A stretch of 64,000 nt of DNA, taken from the NCBI GenBank assembly GCA_943359335.1, contig CALRHC010000001.1:22466-86465 (forward strand), in the 5' to 3' direction. A program made the position numbers and the translations under genes. Shown here in pieces: positions 1,843 through 59,431 of this stretch. This DNA comes from Candidatus Yanofskybacteria bacterium. GTDB taxonomy: Bacteria; Patescibacteriota; Minisyncoccia; JACQLN01. The notes under the pieces were generated by a model that worked only from the letters and a program-made list of their open reading frames with translations, did not search any database and was not told the origin of the DNA. Within the stretch, counting starts at the first letter, position 1, and the number at the start of each line of letters is the position of its first letter.

Positions 1843-2874
1843 ATGGTCAAGTTTGATATCAAAAAAATTGTTAGCCGATTAGTAGATAACCTATCGGACC
1901 GCTCAAAGGACATAATCTTGTCCCGATTTGGCATTGGTAAAGATGACTACGATACCCTAGAAGCTATAGGGCAACGCTATGGCATTACTCGTGAAAGGGT
2001 TAGACAGATAGAAGCCGACGCTTTAAAGCATATTAAAAGTGCTTCTAATGAATCTATTATAAAACCGGTAATAACTGTTTTAAATGAATTCATAAAATCT
2101 AACGGTGGTGTTATGGATGAAAATGATCTAAAAGCTAGTTTTGCTTCTAATCATTTTGAAACAAAGCCAGAACCTACAAATAAGTACGAAGGCGCTACAA
2201 TGTTTTTCTTAAACTTGGCGGGTTCATTTGTTAGAACAAAAGAAGACGAAAATTTTTGGCCTCGCTGGGCATTAGAAAATTCTTATGTAAAAAACCAAGA
2301 AGCTTTGGTTGCTCATTTAACTGGTCAATTAAAAAAAGAAAAGAAAGTTGTTGGTTTTGAAGAAATGATTAATTGGGCCAAAAAACATAATACTGTTTTA
2401 AACAAAGATATTGTTTTGGCTTACTTAGCTTCTGCTAAAAATATTTCTAAAAATTCTTTTAGTGAATGGGGAATGATTTCTTGGGCAGAAGTTTCTCCTC
2501 GCGGTGTTCGTGACAAAGCCTACTTGGTAATGAAGCGCACGCAAAAGCCTATGCACTTTACAGAAGTTGCAGGCGAAATTAACAAAGCCAGTTTTTCTAA
2601 ACGCGTAGCTTTGCCTCAAACAGTTCACAATGAACTTATTAAAGATGGTAGATTCGTTTTGGTTGGCCGTGGTTTGTATGCTCTAAAAGATTGGGGTTAC
2701 GAAGCTGGCACAGTTAAAGATGTAATCAAAAGCGTACTTGCAGCCAAGGGTCCAATGAACCGAGAAGATGTTGTAAAATCTGTTTTGGCTAAGCGTATGG
2801 TAAAACCAAGTACAATTATTTTAAATTTAAACGGTTTTAAAAAGAAAGACGATAACAAGTATTATTTACTCTAA
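1843..2874 (+). CDS. sigma-70 region-4-like HTH domain protein, C-terminal 270 aa of unknown function
   Basis: N-terminus ILSRFGIGKDDYDTLEAIGQRYGITRERVRQIEADALKHIK matches the sigma-70 region 4.2 HTH; rest has no recognisable motif. Confidence 0.5.
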   Translation: MVKFDIKKIVSRLVDNLSDRSKDIILSRFGIGKDDYDTLEAIGQRYGITRERVRQIEADALKHIKSASNESIIKPVITVLNEFIKSNGGVMDENDLKASFASNHFETKPEPTNKYEGATMFFLNLAGSFVRTKEDENFWPRWALENSYVKNQEALVAHLTGQLKKEKKVVGFEEMINWAKKHNTVLNKDIVLAYLASAKNISKNSFSEWGMISWAEVSPRGVRDKAYLVMKRTQKPMHFTEVAGEINKASFSKRVALPQTVHNELIKDGRFVLVGRGLYALKDWGYEAGTVKDVIKSVLAAKGPMNREDVVKSVLAKRMVKPSTIILNLNGFKKKDDNKYYLL

Positions 2875-2895
2875 TAAAGTTTAACTAAACTTTCA

Positions 2896-2928
2896 AAAAC
2901 AGCTCCGATCTTGTATCGGAGCTGTTTT
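2896..2928 (+). terminator. intrinsic terminator hairpin (ACAGCTCCGAT-loop-ATCGGAGCTGT + T-run)
   Basis: Perfect 11-bp inverted repeat followed by TTTTGT; near-identical copy at 18309. Confidence 0.7.
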
Positions 2929-2987
2929 GTATTGTAGGCTTATGCTTAAGAATCTGTTCTTTAACTTTTAACTTCGAAAGGATAATT

Positions 2988-3374
2988 ATGGAAACTCCTT
3001 CCGTTGTAATGAATGAAGTTCAGGGGGAATTGTTTTTATTGAAAATGCTATTGAGTAATCTTAAGGCGGCGGAATTATTTATTTCTGCCGGTGTTGAAAT
3101 GGCGGATGCGTTAGTTGATTTATATCCTGCTGCCGATACAGTAGTTACAGAAAAGATGCGGCCCAAGACAATAGAATTTTTTAGATCGTTCGATAGGTCT
3201 ATGAATGCTCTTTCTAAGGATTTTCCAAAAGACTTAATCAAACAAGTCGAGAGTAGAGTAACTATTTTGGAAAAAACAACTACAGAAGGTTTGATAGATC
3301 AATCATCTAATGTTGGCACAGTACAAGGATCCGGAACTAATATTCATGATCCCGACCATACTGCAGAGTTGTAG
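2988..3374 (+). CDS. hypothetical protein (128 aa)
   Basis: ORF with ATG start 7 nt after an A-rich/GGA region; no recognisable motif; moderately elevated GC. Confidence 0.35.
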   Translation: METPSVVMNEVQGELFLLKMLLSNLKAAELFISAGVEMADALVDLYPAADTVVTEKMRPKTIEFFRSFDRSMNALSKDFPKDLIKQVESRVTILEKTTTEGLIDQSSNVGTVQGSGTNIHDPDHTAEL

Positions 3375-3458
3375 TTACTGTTTCGTCCCTAATAAAATGG
3401 GGACGATTTTTTTGTCTTCAAAAATTAGCCCGAGTAAAATCTAAAAATCACATTATAT

Positions 3459-3487
3459 TTGACATATAGTCAAATATTTGCTTTAAT
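3459..3487 (+). promoter_or_regulatory. sigma-70-type promoter (TTGACA-17-TTTAAT) upstream of lipoprotein gene
   Basis: TATATTTGACATATAG shares a 12-nt core with the promoter at 1783. Confidence 0.4.
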
Positions 3488-3539
3488 TTACACTCGTGTT
3501 CCTTGATTTTTTACTTTAATACCTTAAGTGGAGGTTGCA

Positions 3540-5474
3540 ATGATTCGTCGTCTGCTTTGTCTTTTTGCTATTTTGCTAGGCTTAAACGCCTGCGATAGCA
3601 AACGTGATGCGAACAAGATTTTGTCGCCAAATGTGGATGAAGAAGTGGTGGTCGCCCAAACGGAAAAAGAAGATACATCTTCTTGGGATTTAACCAAGGA
3701 TGTGTCTCTAGATTCTGTGCTGGCTATGCCAGTAGGTACAAAGATGTATTTTCGTACGGCTTTCGTCGGTAAGGTTTTGGAAGATTTCGAAGTCACTTTA
3801 GGTTATGGCAAAGTCGTATATGACCTCACTGCGCCGATGCCAGTGATACACTTGATAGCTTCCGACTCGAGGCTAATCGCTTTGGGTGGAGTATCTCACG
3901 GTATGAGTGGATCCCCAGTTTTTACCAAGGACGGCAAGGTCGGTGCGTTATCCATGAGTTTCGATGAGCAGACTGAGGACAAGAACATTGCTTTTTTTGC
4001 GACGTCGATTGAATGGATGAGGAAGGAAATTCCCAACAAGGAAATCAGGCTGGGTAAGCCGGTGGTTTGGAGGGGGTACATTGTAAGGCCATTGGCTCTT
4101 CCTCTGCTGATGTCTGGCGTTAACAATCATCTGATGAATGCGGCCATTCTCGAATACGCCGACAAACTGGGCGACGGCAATCTCAATATGTTATCGGCAT
4201 CAGGTTCGGCCGGAGCCGGTGGTAATATTGAACAGAAGTTTGAAGATGGTAGCCCGTTGACCGGAGTATTATTTACGGGAGACGAGGTGATCATCGGTGC
4301 CACAGGAACGGCAACCGATGTCCGAGGCAATAACATTTTCGGTTTCGGCCATCCCTGGTGGGGTAACGGGCAGACTTCGTTAGCCATGGTGGCCACCGAA
4401 ATTCTGGCCGAGGTTAGTGGTCCGTCGCCGTTCAAGTTAGCCAGGTTGGGCAATAAGGTTCTTGGGGAAATTATTTACGACCGTATGCCTGGAGTTGGGG
4501 GAGTTTTGGGCCAAATGCCCGAAATGATTCCCTTGGTTTTTAACGCTTCAATTTTTGGCGAGAAGGCGTTAAGCATGAATCATCAAATGTCTCCGGTAGT
4601 TTTATCCGGTTTCGACATGTTCATGCAGGCCATAATGGCCGGTACCACACTTCTTTCTCCTCTGGCCAATAGGCTAGACAATGCCAACGACAAAAGTTTG
4701 ATAGTTCGGACCAAAATCGACTTTAAGGGTTCTAACTTGAAGGTTGATTTTGAAAGGACTTATGCCCAGCCTCATGCTGGTGTATTGGATTTGATGAATG
4801 GTCCTTTGTTTGGTTTTGTTAATGCCTATTTAGGTTCTGTGGGTAACGATTATGCTGATCTGAAAGTTAGCAACATCCAAATGAATGTGGATGTTGTGGA
4901 CGAACCTTTGTTCGCAATCATACAAGGCTTCGAGGCGGATAGTGTCGTTACCGCTGGTAGTGATTTGCCAGTTAAGATCAGTTTAAGGGTTGGAGCAACT
5001 AAAGACGTCGATCTTAACTTGGCTTTTGCTGTGCCGGATAGTTTTGAGGCCGGCATCTATAGCCTGACGGTGGGTTCACTCGCAGCTTTGGAATATTCTT
5101 CCTATGAACCTTCCGATCCGAGCAAGTTTAAAAATCTGGAAGATGTGTTTGAAGACATCAACGAGGTTGATGGTAGTACCACTTTAAAGCTGGTTTTGTC
5201 TTTCAACGAGCCTTTGCCAGTGGAGGCCCCAGATAGCTTGGTGATTGTTGTGCCTGATACAGTAGTTGTGCCTGCTGATACAGTAAAGGTGGATTCACTG
5301 ATGCCTGTGCCACCACCAGTGATGGGTGGTGGTTCGATTGTGTCCTCACCAGGATTGCTACCTCCTTATCAAGAATCTATTGTCTATAACGATAAAGCCA
5401 GTATGGAAAAAAAGATAGACTGGGTTTTGCAGTATGATACAGGTACGGTTAAGGTGAAGGCGATGAAGAAGTAA
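3540..5474 (+). CDS. exported lipoprotein with SpoIVB/S55-like serine-peptidase motif (GMSGSP...GK.GA) and C-terminal Pro/Val-rich repeats
   Basis: ATG at 3540 preceded by GGAGG (the ORF-track start at 3528 is a GTG inside the SD); signal peptide MIRRLLCLFAILLGLNAC with a lipobox Cys; motif GGVSHGMSGSPVFTKDGKVGALSMSF resembles the catalytic-Ser region of peptidase S55; GC about 45-50% versus about 34% genome. Confidence 0.45.
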   Translation: MIRRLLCLFAILLGLNACDSKRDANKILSPNVDEEVVVAQTEKEDTSSWDLTKDVSLDSVLAMPVGTKMYFRTAFVGKVLEDFEVTLGYGKVVYDLTAPMPVIHLIASDSRLIALGGVSHGMSGSPVFTKDGKVGALSMSFDEQTEDKNIAFFATSIEWMRKEIPNKEIRLGKPVVWRGYIVRPLALPLLMSGVNNHLMNAAILEYADKLGDGNLNMLSASGSAGAGGNIEQKFEDGSPLTGVLFTGDEVIIGATGTATDVRGNNIFGFGHPWWGNGQTSLAMVATEILAEVSGPSPFKLARLGNKVLGEIIYDRMPGVGGVLGQMPEMIPLVFNASIFGEKALSMNHQMSPVVLSGFDMFMQAIMAGTTLLSPLANRLDNANDKSLIVRTKIDFKGSNLKVDFERTYAQPHAGVLDLMNGPLFGFVNAYLGSVGNDYADLKVSNIQMNVDVVDEPLFAIIQGFEADSVVTAGSDLPVKISLRVGATKDVDLNLAFAVPDSFEAGIYSLTVGSLAALEYSSYEPSDPSKFKNLEDVFEDINEVDGSTTLKLVLSFNEPLPVEAPDSLVIVVPDTVVVPADTVKVDSLMPVPPPVMGGGSIVSSPGLLPPYQESIVYNDKASMEKKIDWVLQYDTGTVKVKAMKK

Positions 5475-5481
5475 GCTCTTT

Positions 5482-5516
5482 AGAGCGAAGCGGAAAAACC
5501 GCTTCGCTCTTTTTAT
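5482..5516 (+). terminator. intrinsic terminator (AGAGCGAAGCGG-AAAAA-CCGCTTCGCTCT + TTTTT)
   Basis: 12-bp perfect stem followed by a T-run immediately after the stop at 5474. Confidence 0.75.
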
Positions 5517-5554
5517 TTTATTAAGATAATAAAAGTGATAAAATATAATATAAG

Positions 5555-6871
5555 ATGTTGCAAAATCCGTTTAGTTTAATATTCGATATTTTGGGAGTAG
5601 TCTCACACCATATTTGGTTATGGGGTTGGGTTTTTTTGCCGATTCTTTTGGCACCATTTTTATGGGATGCCTATATGTACCACATTCGTATTAAAACTTT
5701 AAAAAAATTTAAATGGCAGATGTTGGAATTTCGCTTACCGCCAGATGTGGAAAAAAGCCCATTGGCAATGGAACAGGTTTTAGCAATCTTACAAAGCACT
5801 CTTTTTAAAGGTGGTTGGTGGAAACGCTATGTGGAAGGGCGCGTTCAAGAATGGTTTAGTTTAGAAATAACTTCTTTCGAAGGCGAATTACATTTTTATA
5901 TTCGAACACTTGGGCAATTTAGAAATTTAGTTGAGGCGGCAATTTATGCACAATATCCACAAGCCGAAATTTTTGATGCTGAAGATTATACGGCAAACGT
6001 TCCAGCAATAATCCCAAACGAAACCCACGACCTTTTTGGTTGCGAACTTAAATTGGCACGTGAAGATGGTTACCCAATACGCACCTATAAAGATTTCGAA
6101 TTAAAGACCGAAAGTAGCAAAGAAGGTGGTTCTAATATTTCTTTGGTGGATCCTTTGGCGGGCATAGCCGAAACAATGACGCGTTTAAAAAAAGGTGAAC
6201 AAGCTTGGATTCAAATCGCTATAAGACCAACCGATGACGGTTGGAAAAAAGTAGCAATGGAGACGGTTTTAAAATTAGTCGGGCGCCCTAAAAAAGAAGT
6301 GCCACAGGGTTCTTATATGTGGGCGTTACTTAAAAAAGAATTATCCGATTTTGCTAAGGGAGCAGTGCAAGCGCCTTTTAAAACTCCGGAATTTGAACCT
6401 TTTGAATGGGGTTCACCAAAAAGTGATAAGCCTCACTCATTAATGCAGTTTCTTACTTCGGGTGAAAAAGAAATTATAGAGGCAATAGAAAGAAAAACCT
6501 CTAAAGTGGGTTTTGAGACAGTTATTAGAGTTGTGTATATAGGTACTAAAGAAGCTTTTTATATACCAACATTTTTTCAGGTGGCTTCCGGTTTTAACCA
6601 GTTTAGTACACAAAATTTAAATTCTATAAAAAGAGATGGCGCCACATTAACTGCAGGAAAATTTCCTTTTAAAAAATTTAAAGAAATGCAAAAGAAGAAG
6701 TGGATGTTATATAAATATAGAATTCGCGGCCGACCAGATACTATGTTTGTAATGAATACAGAAGAACTGGCAACACTTTACCACTTCCCAGGACGAGTTG
6801 TTATGGCGCCAAGCTTGCCTAGAGTTCAAGCTAAAAAAGGCGAACCACCAGCAGGATTACCCAGTTATTAG
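5555..6871 (+). CDS. hypothetical membrane protein (2 N-terminal TM segments plus large soluble domain), putative partner of the downstream ATPase
   Basis: 438 aa; hydrophobic N-terminus LIFDILGVVSHHIWLWGWVFLPILLAPFLW; no catalytic motif recognised. Confidence 0.5.
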   Translation: MLQNPFSLIFDILGVVSHHIWLWGWVFLPILLAPFLWDAYMYHIRIKTLKKFKWQMLEFRLPPDVEKSPLAMEQVLAILQSTLFKGGWWKRYVEGRVQEWFSLEITSFEGELHFYIRTLGQFRNLVEAAIYAQYPQAEIFDAEDYTANVPAIIPNETHDLFGCELKLAREDGYPIRTYKDFELKTESSKEGGSNISLVDPLAGIAETMTRLKKGEQAWIQIAIRPTDDGWKKVAMETVLKLVGRPKKEVPQGSYMWALLKKELSDFAKGAVQAPFKTPEFEPFEWGSPKSDKPHSLMQFLTSGEKEIIEAIERKTSKVGFETVIRVVYIGTKEAFYIPTFFQVASGFNQFSTQNLNSIKRDGATLTAGKFPFKKFKEMQKKKWMLYKYRIRGRPDTMFVMNTEELATLYHFPGRVVMAPSLPRVQAKKGEPPAGLPSY

Positions 6872-6896
6872 CTTCATTAGCTTTCAGCTTCTTTAG
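6868..6896 (+). repeat. left arm (AGCTTCATTAGC type) of the intergenic palindromic repeat family
   Basis: TTAGCTTCATTAGCTTTCAGCTTCTTTAG; its complementary arm lies at 7258..7289, beyond the four-helix-bundle gene. Confidence 0.6.
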
Positions 6897-6903
6897 ATAT
6901 TAG

Positions 6904-7266
6904 ATGATAAATTCTTACAAAGATTTAATTGTTTGGCAAAAATCATTGAAGTTATCATTGTTGGCTTATGAACTTACCGAAAAATTTCCAAAAGAAGAAA
7001 TCTATGGCTTAACATCGCAAATAAGAAGATCGGCAGTATCAATACCGTCTAATATAGCTGAAGGAAGATATAGAGGGACAAAAAATGATTTTACTCAGTT
7101 TTTAAGAATAGCTTATTCTTCGGGCGCAGAATTAGAGACACAAATAGAAATAGCTAGAAATTTATCAAAGACAAAAGATTTAGATTATTCAAAAATAGAT
7201 ATTTTAATAGTAGAGGTTATGAAGATGTTAAATGTTATGATAAGAAATATAAATCCTAAAAGCTAA
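6904..7266 (+). CDS. four-helix-bundle protein (23S rRNA intervening-sequence protein family)
   Basis: 120 aa, LIVWQKSLKLSLLAYELTEKFPKEE...QIRRSAVSIPSNIAEG..F..IAYSSGAELETQIEIA is the signature of this family. Confidence 0.75.
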   Translation: MINSYKDLIVWQKSLKLSLLAYELTEKFPKEEIYGLTSQIRRSAVSIPSNIAEGRYRGTKNDFTQFLRIAYSSGAELETQIEIARNLSKTKDLDYSKIDILIVEVMKMLNVMIRNINPKS

Positions 7267-7289
7267 AGAAGCTAGTGAAGCTAAAAGCT
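7258..7289 (+). repeat. right arm (GCTAATGAAGCT type) of the palindromic repeat family, ending at the ATG at 7290
   Basis: AGCTAAAGAAGCTAGTGAAGCTAAAAGCT|ATG; same arm precedes ATGs at 15601, 20835, 23430, 33591 and 36412(-). Confidence 0.6.
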
Positions 7290-9005
7290 ATGAATGACGA
7301 AATAACTTTATTTGCCGAAACAAATTTTAGAAACGAGAAGCGTCGTTTTGGTATTAAAAAAGACGATCGCCGCAGGCACACCTATATTATTGGAAAAACC
7401 GGTATGGGTAAAACGACCATGCTCGAAAACATGATTATTTCGGATATTATTCATGGCAAGGGTTTAGGTTTTATAGACCCACACGGGGATTCGGCCGAGA
7501 AAATTTTAGAATTTGTTCCACCAGAACGCATAAACGATGTAATTTATTTCGATCCTTCCGATTTAGAAATGCCTATAGCTTTTAATGCTATAGAAAATGT
7601 TGAAGCCGAAAAAAAGCATTTAGTAGCTTCGGGTTTGATGGGTGTGTTTAAAAAAATCTGGCCCGATGTATGGTCGGCCAGAATGGAATATATTTTAAAC
7701 AATACTATTTTAGCTTTGCTAGATTACCCTGGCGCCACTATTTTGGGTATTATGCGAATGCTTTCTAATAAAGAATACCGCAAGCAAGTGGTGGATGAAA
7801 TTAAGGATCCAATGGTTAAATCTTTCTGGGTAGATGAATTTGCTAAGTATACAGATAGATTTGCGGCCGAAGCCACTCCAGCTATTCAAAACAAAGTTGG
7901 GCAGTTTTTATCGGCTGCGGTTATTCGTAATATTGTAGGCCAAGTAAATAGTGCTATGGATATGCGCAAGGTTATGGACGAAGGCAAGATTTTAATTATG
8001 AACCTTTCCAAGGGCAAAATCGGCGAAGATAATTCTAAACTTTTGGGTGGTTTGCTGGTTACAAAATTACAGTTAGCAGCTATGAGCCGTGTAGATATTC
8101 CCGAAGAAGACCGTAAAGATTTCTTTTTATACGTAGACGAGTTTCAGAATTTTGCGACAGAATCTTTTGGTAATATTCTTTCCGAAGCTCGCAAATATCG
8201 CTTAGCCCTTATTTTGGCTAATCAGTACATTGCTCAATTAGTGCAAAGCGTGGGTGGTTCTAAAAGCACAGCGGTGCGAGACGCAATATTTGGTAACGTT
8301 GGTACCCTAATTTCTTTTAGGGTAGGCGCCGAAGATGCCGAATATTTAGAAAAAGAATTTGCACCAGAATTTGTGGCAACCGATATTGTTAATTTAGCCA
8401 AATACAATGTTTACTTAAAACTTATGATAGACGGCGCAGCTTCGCGGGCTTTTTCGGCCACAACTTTAGCTCCATACCCAAAACCAGCTGTTAATAATCG
8501 CGATGCCATTATTAAACATTCTAGGGAAACTTATGGCACACCTCGCGAAGACGTAGAAAATGAAATAGCCGATTGGGCTGGTGTTAGAGATTTAATGCCA
8601 TCTAGTATAAAAGCAGCAAAAGCAGAAAGTGATGCTGCTTTTCGTGATGGTTACGATACAGAAGCCGCACCAGCGGTTTCTGCTTCCAAGCCAAAAAGCG
8701 ACAAAGATCTTTTTGAAGCTGTTTGTTGGGAGGGTGGGGAAAAAGTTTGGGTGCCATTTAAACCAGATGGAGTCCGCCCAATTTATTGTAAAAACCATTT
8801 ATATAAATTAAACGAAGTTAAACAGCAAGTTATTTTTGAACAGTTTAAACCAGTAAGTTTGAAAGATGCTTTGCAGAAGGGCGGCATAGTTAATCACATA
8901 GGTAATAATCCTCGTCCAAATAAAAAGAAAAATAAACCTAAAGAACCTCCAGCCGATATAGAAGGTTTGCGTTCGCTGCTTTCCGATATCAAGCCAACTA
9001 CTTAA
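7290..9005 (+). CDS. P-loop ATPase of the TraD/VirD4/HerA-FtsK-like superfamily (T4SS DNA-binding-domain type) with C-terminal Cys/His zinc-ribbon-like motif
   Basis: Walker A IIGKTGMGKTT, Walker B LYVDEFQNF; C-terminus CWEGGEKVWVPFKPDGVRPIYCKNH; start set at ATG 7290 (ORF-track GTG 7275 lies inside the repeat arm) by analogy with the other repeat copies. Confidence 0.6.
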   Translation: MNDEITLFAETNFRNEKRRFGIKKDDRRRHTYIIGKTGMGKTTMLENMIISDIIHGKGLGFIDPHGDSAEKILEFVPPERINDVIYFDPSDLEMPIAFNAIENVEAEKKHLVASGLMGVFKKIWPDVWSARMEYILNNTILALLDYPGATILGIMRMLSNKEYRKQVVDEIKDPMVKSFWVDEFAKYTDRFAAEATPAIQNKVGQFLSAAVIRNIVGQVNSAMDMRKVMDEGKILIMNLSKGKIGEDNSKLLGGLLVTKLQLAAMSRVDIPEEDRKDFFLYVDEFQNFATESFGNILSEARKYRLALILANQYIAQLVQSVGGSKSTAVRDAIFGNVGTLISFRVGAEDAEYLEKEFAPEFVATDIVNLAKYNVYLKLMIDGAASRAFSATTLAPYPKPAVNNRDAIIKHSRETYGTPREDVENEIADWAGVRDLMPSSIKAAKAESDAAFRDGYDTEAAPAVSASKPKSDKDLFEAVCWEGGEKVWVPFKPDGVRPIYCKNHLYKLNEVKQQVIFEQFKPVSLKDALQKGGIVNHIGNNPRPNKKKNKPKEPPADIEGLRSLLSDIKPTT

Positions 9006-9456
9006 ACTTTATAGGTATTTCTATTTTATCGTCGTGTTCGGGCAATCCGGATGGATTGTCTTTTTTTAGTATTAAAAAACCAGTGCTTGTTGTTGGTTCT
9101 TTTTCAAAATAAAATTCTTGAGAAAACGGAACAAAATCTGTGGTCATCCATTCTGCTTTTGCTTGAATTGGTTCTAAAAGTAAAACATTTTCATCTGCAT
9201 CTTTAAGTTCTATTGGAAACGAAGCTTCGAAATACCAATTGCCTCTGGCTTCGCCTTCTATTACAAATGGATTTGTTATAATATCCCCAGCTTTAATATT
9301 ATTAACTTTAATTAAATCTTTTTTAGCATCTATTTTTTCTTGGTAACTAGAAATAAATTCTTTAGAAAAAACCGGAGCATATTTTTTATAAACAAATAGT
9401 CCTAGTATAGAAATGGCTGTTACGAAGCAGATAAATATAAGTAATTTTTTAAGCAT
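8998..9456 (-). CDS. hypothetical N-terminally anchored or exported protein (152 aa)
   Basis: Single N-terminal hydrophobic helix LLIFICFVTAISILGLFVY; no motif. Confidence 0.4.
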   Translation of the reverse strand: MLKKLLIFICFVTAISILGLFVYKKYAPVFSKEFISSYQEKIDAKKDLIKVNNIKAGDIITNPFVIEGEARGNWYFEASFPIELKDADENVLLLEPIQAKAEWMTTDFVPFSQEFYFEKEPTTSTGFLILKKDNPSGLPEHDDKIEIPIKFK

Positions 9457-9512
9457 AGATTAAGTTTAAACCAGATGTGACAAAATATCCAAAAAATGAT
9501 ATTTATTAATTT

Positions 9513-30169: not shown

Positions 30170-30250
30170 TGGTGGGGGCAGCGGGATTTGAACCCACGAC
30201 CTACCGATTGGCAATCGGTAGCTCTTCCTACATATCTGAGCTATGCCCCC
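30170..30250 (-). tRNA. tRNA-Gly (anticodon GCC), CCA encoded, unusually long 13-nt D-loop
   Basis: Hand fold: acceptor GGGGGCA/UGCCCCC, anticodon arm ACCGA-UUGCCAA-UCGGU, T-arm GUGGG-UUCAAAU-CCCGC, 3' ACCA. Confidence 0.7.
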
Positions 30251-37124: not shown

Positions 37125-37946
37125 ATGAGTTCTTCGAGGCAGTTGGTTGAGAGGTTGGAGAAGGCGGAAGTTCAAAGAAACACCCGTCTCAATCCGATGA
37201 CGGTCATCGGGAAAGAAGAGATCATGCTCCGGTGGAGCAAACAGCAGATCGCGATCCTTATCCCTGGGGACAAGATCATGACTGACCTCTACGAAGAGGC
37301 TCTGGAAGCTGATCCCTGCATGGTGCTCCGCGACGGCGATTCGTTCGAGTACGAGGGTGTCGACGAACACGGACGAAAAATAAAGTACTGGGTGACCTGC
37401 TACCTAAACGAACATGGCTTGGCTCGTTACAGCCGTGACGACGAGACCAAGAAAAACACTCGAGAGAGGTACCAGACAGAGGCTGCAGAGATCGCCAAGC
37501 TGAAGGACACCTATGGTTTCGATGGTGTCGCCATCAACAAGTTGAGAGCGGCATCCCGAGTAGGGCTTCTGCTTTCCCCTGTGGTTTGGCTCGAGAATGC
37601 TTTGAAGATGCAGGGTGAGGCAGATGTGGTGAGGAATCTTCTCGCAACTCTCTTCAAGGGTGCTGAGAATTTTCCGGAGAAAGAATTCCGGAGCATCCTG
37701 AATCACATCGGCTTCGAACCCCCCGTTGAAACTGGCAGGGACTTTGTCTCCGTATGCTTCGGGGTGAGGGCTTTGCTGGTGAACATCGACTTTGGCAAGA
37801 AGGTTGTTGAGCCCGAGACCAATGGTCACGCGAAGATCAACGGCAACGGTTACCACAATCCCTCCGAAGACGGGCCTGCCATCGGTCCAGAACACGCCAA
37901 ACGGGCGGCTGGCATCAGCGAAACGTTCGCGCCGGTCGTCCAGTAA
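37125..37946 (+). CDS. hypothetical protein (273 aa) in a GC-rich (about 55%) laterally acquired insert; own SD GGGAGG and terminator
   Basis: Sharp compositional break versus flanking about 34% GC; many antisense ORFs typical of high-GC coding DNA; no motif recognised. Confidence 0.55.
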   Translation: MSSSRQLVERLEKAEVQRNTRLNPMTVIGKEEIMLRWSKQQIAILIPGDKIMTDLYEEALEADPCMVLRDGDSFEYEGVDEHGRKIKYWVTCYLNEHGLARYSRDDETKKNTRERYQTEAAEIAKLKDTYGFDGVAINKLRAASRVGLLLSPVVWLENALKMQGEADVVRNLLATLFKGAENFPEKEFRSILNHIGFEPPVETGRDFVSVCFGVRALLVNIDFGKKVVEPETNGHAKINGNGYHNPSEDGPAIGPEHAKRAAGISETFAPVVQ

Positions 37947-55687: not shown

Positions 55688-55727
55688 CAAAACATCCAGC
55701 TCGCCTAGAGAGCTGGATGTTTTTGTT
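55688..55727. terminator. bidirectional terminator AACATCCAGCTC-GCCTAGA-GAGCTGGATGTT with A-run/T-run; 3' end of both rnhA (+) and rnpB (-)
   Basis: 12-bp perfect stem; core CCAGCT...CCTAGA...AGCTGG repeated at 56221. Confidence 0.7.
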
Positions 55728-56170
55728 AAGAAAGTCGTAAGCCGAATTCTGTCTTGCCTCAACGGCAAGGATAATCATCTGTCTGGGATTGTTATTGCTA
55801 ACAACCTCTGGCGACTCTTCCTTAATAATTTAGATTACTAAGGACACGGTCTTGCACCAAGTGGGGTTTACAACTATTTAGTATTGCTACTAAACAGAAT
55901 CGCGTTTGACGCGACACTTTTCACCTTTAGACTCAATTTTTACATTGAGCTTAGTATAGTCTCTGTTGCATAGGCTCACGGAATCAGCTGTCATCAATGA
56001 ACCTATATCCAATAAAGGACACTTTCCCTGGGCTTGAACCTAATTTTCATTAGATCTGCTCCCGGTTGCATTTCGCAACCACTTGTTTCCTCCGTTTATT
56101 CAACGGATTCGGTGTTCGGACTTTCCTCAATCCATTTTTAGATGAATTGCGATTATCTCACTTTCTTAAC
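55725..56170 (-). ncRNA. rnpB: RNase P RNA (bacterial type)
   Basis: Minus strand carries the universal GAGGAAAGUCCGAACACC (P4 5' strand), ACAGAAUUCGGCUUAC (P4 3' strand) and a perfect P1 GUUAAGAAAGU/ACUUUCUUAAC; minus-strand promoter TTGACT-17-TATCAT at 56205..56177; no ORF of substance. Confidence 0.85.
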
Positions 56171-58768: not shown

Positions 58769-59431
58769 TTATTCGGTTTCTATTTCCAGATTCTCCAATT
58801 CTTGTCTGATGGTATAGCGCGAGATACCTCTTGATCGACGTAGTTTTCCAACCAAGTTTACCGATACGCCTGCACATTCGGCTATGATCTTATCGCTCAA
58901 ATGTCCAAGAAATGGACCGACTTTATCTCTCCAATTGTTTTTATTTATTTCTGTAAAAGAATATTTTTTTCCGATTCTTTCAAAGGCCTGGGTAAGTCCT
59001 CCAAAGTGAACCACGGCCGAGTGGTAAATAGCTGGATGTTCCTTTAGCATCTCTTCCGGTGATAGACCTTCTTTGCCAAACAACTTAGGCAAAGTCTGAG
59101 CCGCACAGAAAAAAGGCAACTCTATATTGCTATATCTACCATGGCAAATAAGCTTGGGTTGAAAGCGATTGCCGCAACCAGAACAAGCTGTGGTGAAATC
59201 ATCTGGATCAGGTAAAAAACCTTTAATAATCTCTAGAGCCGTCATTTTACAACTACACTTGGGGCATGTTGCTTGGGGTTCGTACTTGTCGCCCCTCAAC
59301 GCTTCAACTAAATCCAAACGCATCTGAAGTTGTGCTTGCTGGATATATATACGTTGCTCAACATTCAATGATAGAGTGATTCTTTGCATATTTCTCAAAC
59401 TCTGCGAAAGTGACACTTCTTGCATCAACAT
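58769..59431 (-). CDS. hypothetical zinc-ribbon plus C-terminal HTH protein (220 aa), GC about 42%
   Basis: CPKCSC...CSGCGNRF ribbon; C-terminal LVGKLRRSRGISRYTIRQEL resembles an HTH. Confidence 0.4.
   Translation of the reverse strand: MLMQEVSLSQSLRNMQRITLSLNVEQRIYIQQAQLQMRLDLVEALRGDKYEPQATCPKCSCKMTALEIIKGFLPDPDDFTTACSGCGNRFQPKLICHGRYSNIELPFFCAAQTLPKLFGKEGLSPEEMLKEHPAIYHSAVVHFGGLTQAFERIGKKYSFTEINKNNWRDKVGPFLGHLSDKIIAECAGVSVNLVGKLRRSRGISRYTIRQELENLEIETE

Follow-up and report, generated by a model that had tools for sequence, protein, structure and literature searches.

The closest described relative of the protease discussed here is SpoIVB of Bacillus subtilis (MEROPS family S55, Pfam PF05580, TIGR02860), for which a crystal structure is available (9LNF; PMC12502668). 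In the HtrA, DegP and DegS proteases (S1C), as well as in Rv3671c/MarP, the catalytic residues follow the order His-Asp-Ser and are accompanied by PDZ or transmembrane accessory parts; their similarity to the protein described below is limited to the GxSGxP turn (Trypsin_2, E 0.15). The order of the catalytic residues is a hallmark of a protease clan, and in every clan PA family known to us it is His-Asp-Ser/Cys. At the level of the genome, the locus can be compared with the replacement-type flexible genomic islands of marine-bacteria pangenomes, in which the same position carries a different allele, or none, in each strain, and the products are typically surface-exposed.

The stretch of DNA analyzed here (the window, 64,000 nucleotides of a Candidatus Yanofskybacteria contig) probably carries at positions 3457–5514 a self-contained cassette, running from promoter to terminator and seated in such a replacement-type variable spot, with a product that is an S55-related serine endopeptidase with its barrels reversed. 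Together with a small ORF, the cassette would fill the spot between two conserved genes, one for a sigma70-region-4/HARE-HTH protein and one for a DUF8128 protein. The predicted product would be exported and would sit on the outer side of the membrane at the end of a flexible tether of ~37 residues, with Cys18 as its probable lipid anchor. Its fold would be that of chymotrypsin (clan PA), and as a serine endopeptidase it would be related specifically to S55 (SpoIVB); in its chain, the nucleophile barrel (S123, GMSGSP) comes first and is followed by an insert of 67 residues and then by a barrel presenting the general base H271 and D314. The PDZ domain of SpoIVB is missing, and ~300 residues of β-rich domains probably choose the substrates instead. 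The features of the locus are collected in Table 1.

Table 1. Features of the variable spot, in window coordinates
Feature	Position	Strand	Basis or remark
Intrinsic terminator of sigma70-region-4/HARE-HTH gene	2896..2928	+	14-bp stem and U-tract, -21.1 kcal/mol, z -6.2
Small ORF, 128 aa	2988..3374	+	syntenic in L003, L007, L094, L096, L097
Terminator after small ORF	3383..3406	+	-14.3 kcal/mol, z -4.4
Cassette promoter	3459..3487	+	invariant across five loci, one in a different genomic context
Ribosome-binding site GGAGG	3530..3534	+	5 nt ahead of ATG 3540, kept in orthologues
CDS of S55-like lipoprotein peptidase, 644 aa	3540..5474	+	ORF
Predicted lipoprotein signal peptide MIRRLLCLFAILLGLNAC, lipobox L-N-A-C18	3540..3593	+	lipobox pattern in orthologues
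Acidic tether, ~37 residues	3594..3704	+	largely low confidence; pLDDT <50 at residues 25–40
First β-barrel, residues 56–165, homologous to S55/chymotrypsin-fold C-terminal barrel	3705..4034	+	profile homology
Insert of ~67 residues (166–232) between serine and histidine barrels	4035..4235	+	AF2 secondary structure
Second β-barrel, residues 233–350, as N-terminal His/Asp barrel of chymotrypsin fold	4236..4589	+	
C-terminal α/β and β-rich domains, residues 351–562	4590..5225	+	pLDDT mostly >90
Pro/Val-rich disordered loop, residues 563–614	5226..5381	+	pLDDT 35–46
C-terminal strands, residues 615–644	5382..5471	+	pLDDT 88–96, strands 619–625 and 634–642
Cassette terminator	5482..5510	+	-22.3 kcal/mol, z -6.5

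Two protein-coding ORFs are present in the island, the larger one comprising 644 residues when counted from the ATG, one fewer than the 645 given in the preliminary description of this DNA; an alternative GTG start at 3528 would extend it to 648. The two terminators that had been proposed as the bounds of the island (at 2896 and 5482) are both real and coincide with the edges of the variable region: on the left, DNA similarity to close relatives stops at 2868–2972, and on the right, similarity to loci L096 and L097 restarts at 5509–5516. The hairpin of the right-hand terminator, GCGAAGCGG-N5-CCGCTTCGC, occurs once in the window and is also found 3' of the gene in L003, L094, and L095. A third terminator, absent from the preliminary description, follows the small ORF, so that the island consists of two transcription units; this terminator is kept in L003, L094, and L096, and the protease cassette, as delimited by the indel between L096 and L097, begins with it. 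A protein identical to the window protease (P0001) is encoded on six public contigs, the longest of 123 kb, and the gene order in Patescibacteria is SecDF, sigma-region-4 gene, small ORF, protease gene, DUF8128, and T4CP.

The first barrel aligns with the serine-bearing C-terminal barrel of SpoIVB/S55 with an hhalign E value of 3.5e-20, and the GMSGSP stretch, previously noted as resembling the catalytic-serine region of S55 peptidases, is thus truly homologous to it. The match takes in the GMSG(S/A)P turn, the GxxxGA strand that follows it, and the terminal IEWM helix, with which the barrel closes as in the chymotrypsin fold. The motif HGMSGSPVFTKDGKVGALSMSF spans residues 119–140, with G121-M-S123-G-S-P126 encoded by nucleotides 3900–3917 and the nucleophile S123 by 3906–3908. 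The same barrel matches 9LNF with E 3.3e-12, and in a Foldseek comparison of the whole model with the PDB, in which the signal is diluted because the query is multi-domain, this structure was the sole significant match, over 105 columns. Of 62 family members, 60 match the Pfam S55 profile, always with profile positions 117–206 and always in their N-terminal part.

The second barrel, modelled by itself with a pLDDT of 88.7, contains the sequence GTxT...GFGH271 (H271 encoded by 4350–4352), K299, and D314 (4479–4481). Its strands fit the N-terminal barrel of chymotrypsin, with His following the third strand and Asp preceding the sixth in the model, and the spacing between H271 and D314 is 43 residues. 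The corresponding spacing between His57 and Asp102 of chymotrypsin is 45 residues. The His motif is of the type GTxT..x(G/A)xGH in both this protein and SpoIVB. In profile comparisons the barrel also matches SpoIVB at two sites, weakly and in co-linear order (the region of His236 and the strand that follows), and it matches the N-terminal profile of Pfam S55 with E 0.009. When the two barrels were rejoined in the SpoIVB order, a single alignment over 130 columns was obtained (score 128.9 vs 119.7). Across the family alignment, S123 and H271 are invariant (211/211 each) and D314 nearly so (209/211), and the pLDDT of the AF2 model (pTM 0.81) exceeds 90 around all three residues.

The order of these elements along the chain sets the protein apart. 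It has the two six-stranded chymotrypsin-type β-barrels of clan PA, but its Ser123 precedes His271 and Asp314, whereas the clan order is His, Asp, Ser/Cys; similarly, although its catalytic-serine barrel is homologous to that of SpoIVB (GMSGxP region), the order of S55, with His236 before Ser378, is not followed. Consistent with a swap, the two halves of the S55 profile match in inverted order, the C-terminal one upstream of the N-terminal one. We know of no precedent for the order Ser-His-Asp in clan PA, and a literature search for a permuted clan PA or S55 protease, or for this protease family, returned nothing relevant, an absence that is not proof. The individual matches of the second barrel to the N-terminal barrel of S55 are weak (P 0.005–0.07, hhalign probabilities <10%), and a profile of the middle region searched against PDB sequences gave chance matches only (citrate synthase, E 0.004) and no SpoIVB. 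It could be argued that only the first barrel is derived from a protease and that the second is a generic barrel of the MreC/PilZ type, the protein being then either a non-catalytic binder or an enzyme with a different catalytic arrangement (Ser-only, Ser/Lys involving K299, or an intersubunit triad). We regard this as unlikely. In the reading with reversed barrels, S123, H271, and D314 would come together at the interface of the barrels as a working triad.

The preliminary description drew the comparison with SpoIVB-type signalling peptidases. An orthodox peptidase of this type would be a PDZ-guided S55 enzyme that cleaves a membrane regulator and triggers intramembrane proteolysis, borrowed by a non-sporulating organism. 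The truly S55-like GMSGSP barrel agrees with such an assignment, as do the label "SpoIVB peptidase S55 domain-containing protein", given by NCBI to some homologues, and the presence of a gene for a sigma-region-4 protein 0.7 kb upstream. Against it, no PDZ domain was found by profile search in the window protein or in any of the 62 family members, whereas PDZ_6 is detected at the SpoIVB locus L013. The protein scores only 17.8 bits with TIGR02860 (curated threshold 305) and 16.6 bits with PF05580 (threshold 25), the latter restricted to profile positions 157–198 of 210, and no co-linear whole-domain S55 match above the curated thresholds was obtained. The barrels are swapped, and no element of a sporulation context (spo0A/recN neighbourhood, SpoIVFA substrate, Bacillota) was found at the Patescibacteria locus. 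The sigma-region-4 gene remains beside DUF8128 in relatives without the protease, the protease gene is missing from a strain with 99%-identical flanks, and in Gemmatimonadota and Acidobacteriota the homologous genes stand alone, neither a partner nor the gene context being conserved. The orthodox reading is thus largely refuted, and we consider it highly improbable. The SpoIVB genes used for comparison came from the frameshifted genome locus L013 and 80 Bacillaceae loci; querying with 97 aa of SpoIVB yielded short fragments only and no full-length SpoIVB, and as the Bacillaceae proteins are 68–79% identical to the reconstructed L013 query (Neff 2.3), the sensitivity of the resulting profile is limited.

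As compared with SpoIVB, then, both proteins appear from sequence and model to be exported serine peptidases with a double β-barrel fold, but in the window protease the serine barrel, the 67-residue insert (little conserved across clades), and the His/Asp barrel follow each other in reverse, the PDZ domain is absent, an extra 300 C-terminal residues belong to no recognizable family, and the context is not one of sporulation. SpoIVB has a signal anchor, whereas the members of this family have a lipoprotein or plain signal peptide. The lipoprotein-type signal peptide claimed earlier for the large ORF is conserved across its clade: the lipobox is kept in clade A (LAAC, LLAC, LIAC, LWSC or LGSC in orthologues, followed by D or G), and clade B has ordinary signal peptides. 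The Asn at position -2 of LNAC18 is unusual with respect to the [LVI][ASTVI][GAS]C pattern. The protease is predicted to be exported and is probably lipid-anchored at Cys18. Residues 351–562, for which no recognizable family was found and which have no Pfam match in the 62 members, presumably handle the recognition of substrates or partners. The Pro/Val-rich segment, previously taken for terminal repeats, is a disordered loop that varies in length and composition and is almost missing in P0005; it is followed by the C-terminal strands, which in the model fold back on the body of the protein.

The family is large, comprising at least 4,570 clusters at 50% identity; it occurs in Acidobacteriota, Gemmatimonadota, Methylacidiphilales, and Patescibacteria, with several carriers in the last of these, and the notion that an S55-like peptidase would be unusual in such a bacterium does not hold. 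If the assignment is true, thousands of natural proteins carry S55/chymotrypsin barrels in swapped order, which would represent a clean circular permutation and would merit a MEROPS family or subfamily of its own. In addition, D314 occupies a position like that of Asp102, whereas the examined Bacillaceae SpoIVBs have Asn there; since the Asp is kept where SpoIVB has Asn, the family could help to settle the third catalytic residue of SpoIVB. The NCBI label quoted above is misleading as to the function of these ~600-aa proteins. With slightly less confidence than an even chance would warrant, we propose a very large, hitherto undescribed family of serine proteases with circularly permuted barrels (Ser-His-Asp), whose members are secreted or anchored to lipid. 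In the ultra-small Patescibacteria the gene would form a surface-protease cassette that differs from strain to strain, is exchanged rapidly, and has a promoter of its own with an operator; the protease would be used in contacts with host cells or with the proteome of the surroundings. We can speculate that the enzyme acts on external proteins, whether of the host cell, the environment, or the surface of the producing cell itself; a predicted surface protease is what one would expect to be important to an episymbiont or a scavenger.

The island character of the locus, suggested earlier from composition, is confirmed by comparison with close relatives. The flanks of L096 and L097 are 99% identical, and the two differ by a promoter-to-terminator cassette of 2,125 bp, so the protease must be dispensable. 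In eight distant relatives (L101–L104, L107–L110) the site is empty, with the sigma-region-4 gene adjoining DUF8128 across a gap of ~45–200 nt between tblastn matches. Where the gene is present, its product is 60% or 36% identical to that of relatives, the neighbouring proteins being 88–93% or 70–82% identical; in L096 the promoter and 5'UTR are 85% identical, and the ORF is 36% identical. The whole promoter-to-terminator unit also occurs at a second locus (polIII-alpha ... NusB) in L095 and L005. Mosaic breakpoints are located at 2868–2972, 3382, about 3527, and 5509–5516; no integrase or transposase is adjacent to the cassette, and no significant repeats flank it. The turnover may proceed through homologous recombination, with the flanks and the promoter as the conserved sequences involved, possibly under diversifying or frequency-dependent selection. 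Fixed position between core genes, presence, absence and divergent alleles between near-identical flanks, the lack of mobility genes, and a product predicted to be surface-exposed are all shared with replacement-type islands. The differences are that a single 2-kb cassette is exchanged here, gained, lost, and replaced as one gene rather than as a multi-gene glycosylation cluster, that it is also found at a second locus, and that replacement of the ORF leaves the promoter and 5'UTR conserved.

The elevated GC content that first drew attention to the region is real. In 1-kb windows it reaches 0.475 at 4001–5000 versus about 0.31–0.40 elsewhere (maximum in 300-nt windows, 0.527), and the protease gene alone accounts for the rise (GC 0.464, GC3 0.482); the small ORF (GC 0.377, GC3 0.31) lies at the upper end of the background range. 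The remaining genes in the window that encode 150 aa or more have GC3 of 0.18–0.33, with the exception of 37125–37946 (0.67) and 58769–59431 (0.38). A native, vertically inherited gene, its GC raised by an amino-acid composition rich in Gly, Ala, Pro, and Val or by gene-specific selection, would agree with GC1 at the high end (0.53), and selection could be hinted at by GC3 values of 0.44–0.55 in all alleles irrespective of the GC of the host (elevated likewise in L003, L094, and L096), which a simple one-off transfer does not fully explain. The excess, however, is mainly at third positions (0.48, beyond the 0.20–0.33 of all neighbours), with an ordinary GC2 of 0.38, and the anomaly thus resides in synonymous positions and does not stem from the amino-acid composition. 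Polymorphism for presence between strains with 99%-identical flanks, the gene-free ancestral state in the eight distant relatives, alleles 36–60% identical between neighbours 88–98% identical, and the sister alleles P0003 and P0004 in different genomic contexts also speak against vertical descent, which is very improbable.

Several other connections were considered and rejected. A bAvd-like 23S-IVP gene lies nearby, but no template/variable repeat pair characteristic of a DGR occurs in 2800–9100, L003 and L007 carry the cassette without the IVP gene, and no reverse transcriptase is adjacent. Neither PADLOC (defence island) nor PHROG (phage origin) matches the protease or the small ORF. A functional tie to DUF8128 and the VirD4-like ATPase is contradicted by the retention of this pair, together with the sigma-region-4 gene, in relatives without the protease, and by the presence of the protease at another locus.

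The cassette promoter consists of a -35 element TTGACA (3459–3464), a 17-nt spacer, and an extended -10 element TGCTTTAAT (3479–3487); similarity to L095, in its other genomic context, begins exactly at 3457. A palindrome, TTGAC-ATATA-GTCAA (3459–3473), overlaps the -35 element, its arms conserved and its center variable, and is a candidate operator; the pattern TTGAC-N5-GTCAA occurs once in the window, with 0 occurrences expected. The 12-nt core ATTTGACATATA, reported earlier as common to this promoter and that of the sigma-region-4 gene, is indeed present in both (exact copies at 1781 and 3457); a third copy, on the minus strand at 9510, deviates at one position. The number of matches expected when one mismatch is tolerated is 0.62, and three were reached in 3 of 100 shuffles. 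The orthologous promoter pairs of L003 and L007 share only TTGACA/T, and the co-regulation proposed on this basis was rejected, the shared part being the -35 hexamer only.

The small ORF had been called an orphan, but it is not a singleton: its family comprises 14 members, Patescibacteria in every case, with a conserved C-terminal motif H[DEQ]PDxTAE, and searches of Pfam, NCBIfam, PHROG, and PADLOC gave nothing above threshold. Despite synteny, identity is 18–28% in a five-way alignment and 23–29% pairwise, and the protein is fast-evolving and restricted to Patescibacteria. DNA similarity to L094 is nil across this ORF although both flanks are 83–91% identical; it is the first module of the island, replaceable on its own.

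The large gene is best read as encoding a member of an S55-related peptidase family of the clan-PA fold in which the barrels stand in reversed order and the domain architecture is new; in Patescibacteria it occurs as an exchangeable single-gene cassette that extends from promoter to terminator. The two terminators that the preliminary description placed at the ends of the two-ORF stretch are real, each folding far better than shuffled controls, and with a third one, between the ORFs, the stretch comprises two transcription units. The gene order GatC–amidase–...–SecD–SecF–sigma region 4 protein–small ORF–protease–DUF8128–VirD4-like ATPase–MnmA is also found in the loci of two other Patescibacteria genomes, L003 and L007.

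Positions of the cassette, its neighbours and other features of the window
Feature	Position	Strand	Detail
Sigma-70 region 4/HARE-HTH gene	1843-2874	+	343 aa; left neighbour of the two-ORF stretch
Terminator (hairpin plus U-tract)	2896-2928		-21.1 kcal/mol; z -6.2 against shuffled controls
Small ORF	2988-3374	+	128 aa
Terminator (hairpin plus U-tract)	3383-3406		-14.3 kcal/mol; z -4.4 against shuffled controls
Cassette promoter	3459-3464 (-35), 3479-3487 (extended -10)	+	TTGACA, 17-nt spacer, TGCTTTAAT
Large ORF (protease)	3540-5474	+	644 aa from the ATG, which follows GGAGG at 3530-3534
Terminator (hairpin plus U-tract)	5482-5510		-22.3 kcal/mol; z -6.5 against shuffled controls
DUF8128 gene	5555-6871	+	right neighbour of the two-ORF stretch
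23S rRNA intervening-sequence protein gene	6904-7266	+	PF05635, E 3.5e-36
TrwB/VirD4-like ATPase gene	7275-9005	+	C-terminal treble-clef zinc finger
tRNA	30173-30250	-	Rfam
Compositional outlier ORF	37125-37946	+	273 aa; GC 0.54, GC3 0.67
RNase P RNA, class A	55723-56168	-	Rfam, 145 bits

The N terminus of the large protein, MIRRLLCLFAILLGLNAC followed by Asp, looks like a lipoprotein signal peptide, with an unusual Asn at position -2. The nearest homologues carry LAAC, LLAC, LIAC, LWSC or LGSC, with D or G next and then an acidic linker, and a more distant clade has ordinary signal peptides in place of the lipobox type. The protein is predicted to be exported and is probably lipid-tethered, and it has a conserved serine-protease active-site set. 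In the databases, the identical protein turns up on a metagenome contig of 123 kb. Patescibacteria homologues are 84%, 57%, 57% and 49% identical to it, and one of these carries the label Ca. Taylorbacteria. The next block comprises lipoproteins ~36% identical, several labelled Gemmatimonadota, with examples (P0008 and P0018) on 6–7-Mb contigs. Homologues at ~25% identity come from Thermoanaerobaculia, Acidobacteriota, Bryobacteraceae and Methylacidiphilales, and several bear the NCBI name 'SpoIVB peptidase S55 domain-containing protein'. An exhaustive profile search yields 4,570 cluster representatives (50% identity) at E <= 1e-30; the best 150 of these are 546–721 aa long and all but one cover essentially the entire profile, so the family is large and uniform in architecture.

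The resemblance of the GMSGSP stretch to S55/SpoIVB peptidases, proposed at the outset, is borne out. The window protein scores 16.6 bits with Pfam Peptidase_S55 (cut-off 25), a weak match over profile positions 157–198 of 210, yet 60 of the 62 family members match the profile, always with the C-terminal half of the profile (117–206) and always at the protein N terminus. The family profile matches the SpoIVB crystal structure 9LNF with E 3.3e-12 (profile positions 36–132 on chain residues 223–319). Residues ~70–165, compared with a 78-sequence alignment of spoIVB genes recovered from Bacillaceae genomes, give an hhalign E of 3.5e-20 and a probability of 99.3, the match taking in GMSGSP, the G-A strand after it and the 'IEWM' helix at the end. 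One of the spoIVB genes recovered (L013 2165-3480, GCA_003268595.1) is broken by frameshifts into three ORFs, which may reflect a low-quality assembly or a pseudogene, and was used only after manual reconstruction. S123 aligns with SpoIVB Ser378 (Ala in 9LNF) and is, by this alignment, the predicted nucleophile. SpoIVB-type identity, in turn, does not hold: a domain search finds no PDZ domain in the window protein or in the 62 family members, and the TIGR02860 score is 17.8 against a cut-off of 305. The protein is a relative of SpoIVB and not itself a SpoIVB.

Downstream of the serine motif, the family alignment contains a second invariant set (G247, G256-T257, G270-H271, G277, K299, G309, D314). 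S123 and H271 occur in all of the 211 diverse sequences compared, and D314 in 209. AlphaFold gives a confident model (pLDDT 84, pTM 0.81), which shows a six-stranded barrel with a terminal helix (residues 68–163), an insert (165–232), a second β-barrel (239–323), confident α/β and β domains as far as residue 560, and a disordered loop (563–614) followed by two final strands. The SpoIVB His236 motif, 'AAGIGTMTFYDPxxKxYGALGH', resembles the family's 'AAxGTVTYVDGNxIYAFGH'. Profile–profile alignment puts residues 251–271 on this motif (P 0.04–0.07) and, co-linearly, residues 299–326 on the next SpoIVB segment (P 0.005–0.018), and the middle region of one family member matches positions 12–84 of Pfam S55 (E 0.009). 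Re-joining the barrels in the SpoIVB order produces a single alignment of 130 columns with a score of 128.9 versus 119.7. In the model, H271 comes after the third strand of the second barrel and D314 before the sixth, at a spacing of 43 residues, compared with 45 for His57 and Asp102 of chymotrypsin. Taken singly, these lines are modest evidence of what the second barrel is, but in combination they make it likely that the S55/chymotrypsin double barrel is circularly permuted, with the Ser barrel first, then a 67-residue connector and the His/Asp barrel, giving the order S-H-D.

D314 would occupy the canonical Asp102-like position of chymotrypsin, whereas its equivalent is Asn in the Bacillaceae SpoIVBs examined (L014–L093). 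The residue classically assigned as catalytic in SpoIVB is Asp363. In 9LNF, Asp363 lies ~24 Å from His236, and its catalytic role has been questioned (PMC12502668). Our literature search found neither a description of this protease family nor one of any permuted protease of clan PA or S55, which is weak negative evidence.

The protease and the small ORF have evolved out of step with their neighbours. Neighbouring proteins are 88–93% identical to those of L003 (MnmA 80%) and 70–82% to those of L007, versus 60% and 36% for the protease and 23% and 29% for the small ORF. The decisive evidence came from a metagenome scan with DUF8128: the sigma region 4 gene is followed directly by DUF8128 in eight more distant relatives (~45–200 nt between tblastn hits), and this junction is the empty ancestral site. 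Two Hainich groundwater contigs, L096 and L097, are very near the window (neighbouring proteins 90–98% identical, MnmA 81%); the L096 protease, P0016, is only 36% identical to that of the window, and L097 has none. These contigs are 99% identical in DNA on both flanks; between the flanks, L096 has 2,125 bp comprising a terminator, promoter, ORF and second terminator, where L097 has 124 unrelated bases. The protease is dispensable at strain level and often replaced. DNA similarity between the window and five relatives breaks at 2868–2972, 3382, ~3527 and 5509–5516; the variable region thus coincides with the island first delineated, and in it the small ORF and the protease cassette form two modules that can each be replaced without the other.

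The promoter-to-terminator unit (window 3457–5514) also occurs in a second context, polIII-alpha(-) ... NusB, in L095 and L005, and the L095 allele (P0003) is sister to that of L003 (P0004) despite the different surroundings. In L095 the cassette is followed by genes for a DUF5678 protein and a retropepsin-like Asp_protease_2 (3245–3852, GC3 0.35 and 0.25), which were not observed in this context in L005. The island was found to have neither an integrase or transposase nor repeats at its flanks; most simply, DNA taken up by the cell would recombine homologously with the conserved flanks and promoter.

Across five loci the spacer of the cassette promoter is conserved to the same degree as its hexamers. 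A palindrome, TTGAC-N5-GTCAA, overlaps the -35 element and is a candidate operator; its arms are kept around a centre of ATATA, ATCTA, ATGTA or ATCCG, and the pattern occurs once in the window. The promoter of the sigma region 4 gene, TTGACA-17-TGATAGTAT, is kept in L003. The 12-mer reported as common to both promoters is a true sequence identity, but the orthologous promoters of L003 and L007 share only the -35, and it is therefore no evidence of the co-regulation it had hinted at.

The turnover pattern is typical of surface-exposed products and points to interaction with external partners, not to a role in housekeeping or signalling; outside Patescibacteria, the neighbouring genes gave no further clue. 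The protein would be an active endopeptidase outside the membrane, with its unassigned C-terminal 300 residues selecting substrates, and the external partners would be the host-cell surface or proteins of the environment, or else a receptor would be under pressure from phages.

The small ORF, initially regarded as an orphan, belongs to a family of 14 proteins of 94–135 aa (all source-labelled ones from Patescibacteria) whose main common feature is a C-terminal H[DEQ]PDxTAE motif; no match above threshold was found in Pfam, NCBIfam, PHROG or PADLOC. It is still present in the protease-less L097, so the two are not obligate partners.

The GC rise initially ascribed to the whole stretch is real but confined to the large gene (0.464, up to 0.527 in 300-nt windows), the GC3 of the small ORF (0.31) being at the upper edge of the background. 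GC3 of the large gene is 0.482, versus 0.18–0.33 in all other ORFs of at least 150 aa except 37125–37946 and 58769–59431. Its GC2 (0.381) is ordinary, the excess lying at synonymous sites, and GC3 is raised (0.44–0.55) in all protease alleles from low-GC hosts. The first of the two excepted ORFs, the strongest compositional outlier of the window, has no Pfam match and is probably another acquired gene.

The sigma region 4 protein lacks regions 2 and 3, and its region 4 resembles the MzaA C terminus (NCBIfam NF041931, E 2.7e-19; PADLOC MzaA). DUF8128 and the VirD4-like ATPase each match one half of the same phage protein family, phrog_5156 (E 1.4e-12 and 1e-64, respectively), and this pair is kept with the sigma region 4 gene across distant Patescibacteria. 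Between DUF8128 and the ATPase, the window, L096 and L097 carry the gene for the intervening-sequence protein, a bAvd-like four-helix bundle; L003 and L007 lack it, so it is a second small insertion in the conserved block. Across the whole window, Rfam gives just two matches at gathering threshold, RNase P RNA and one tRNA.
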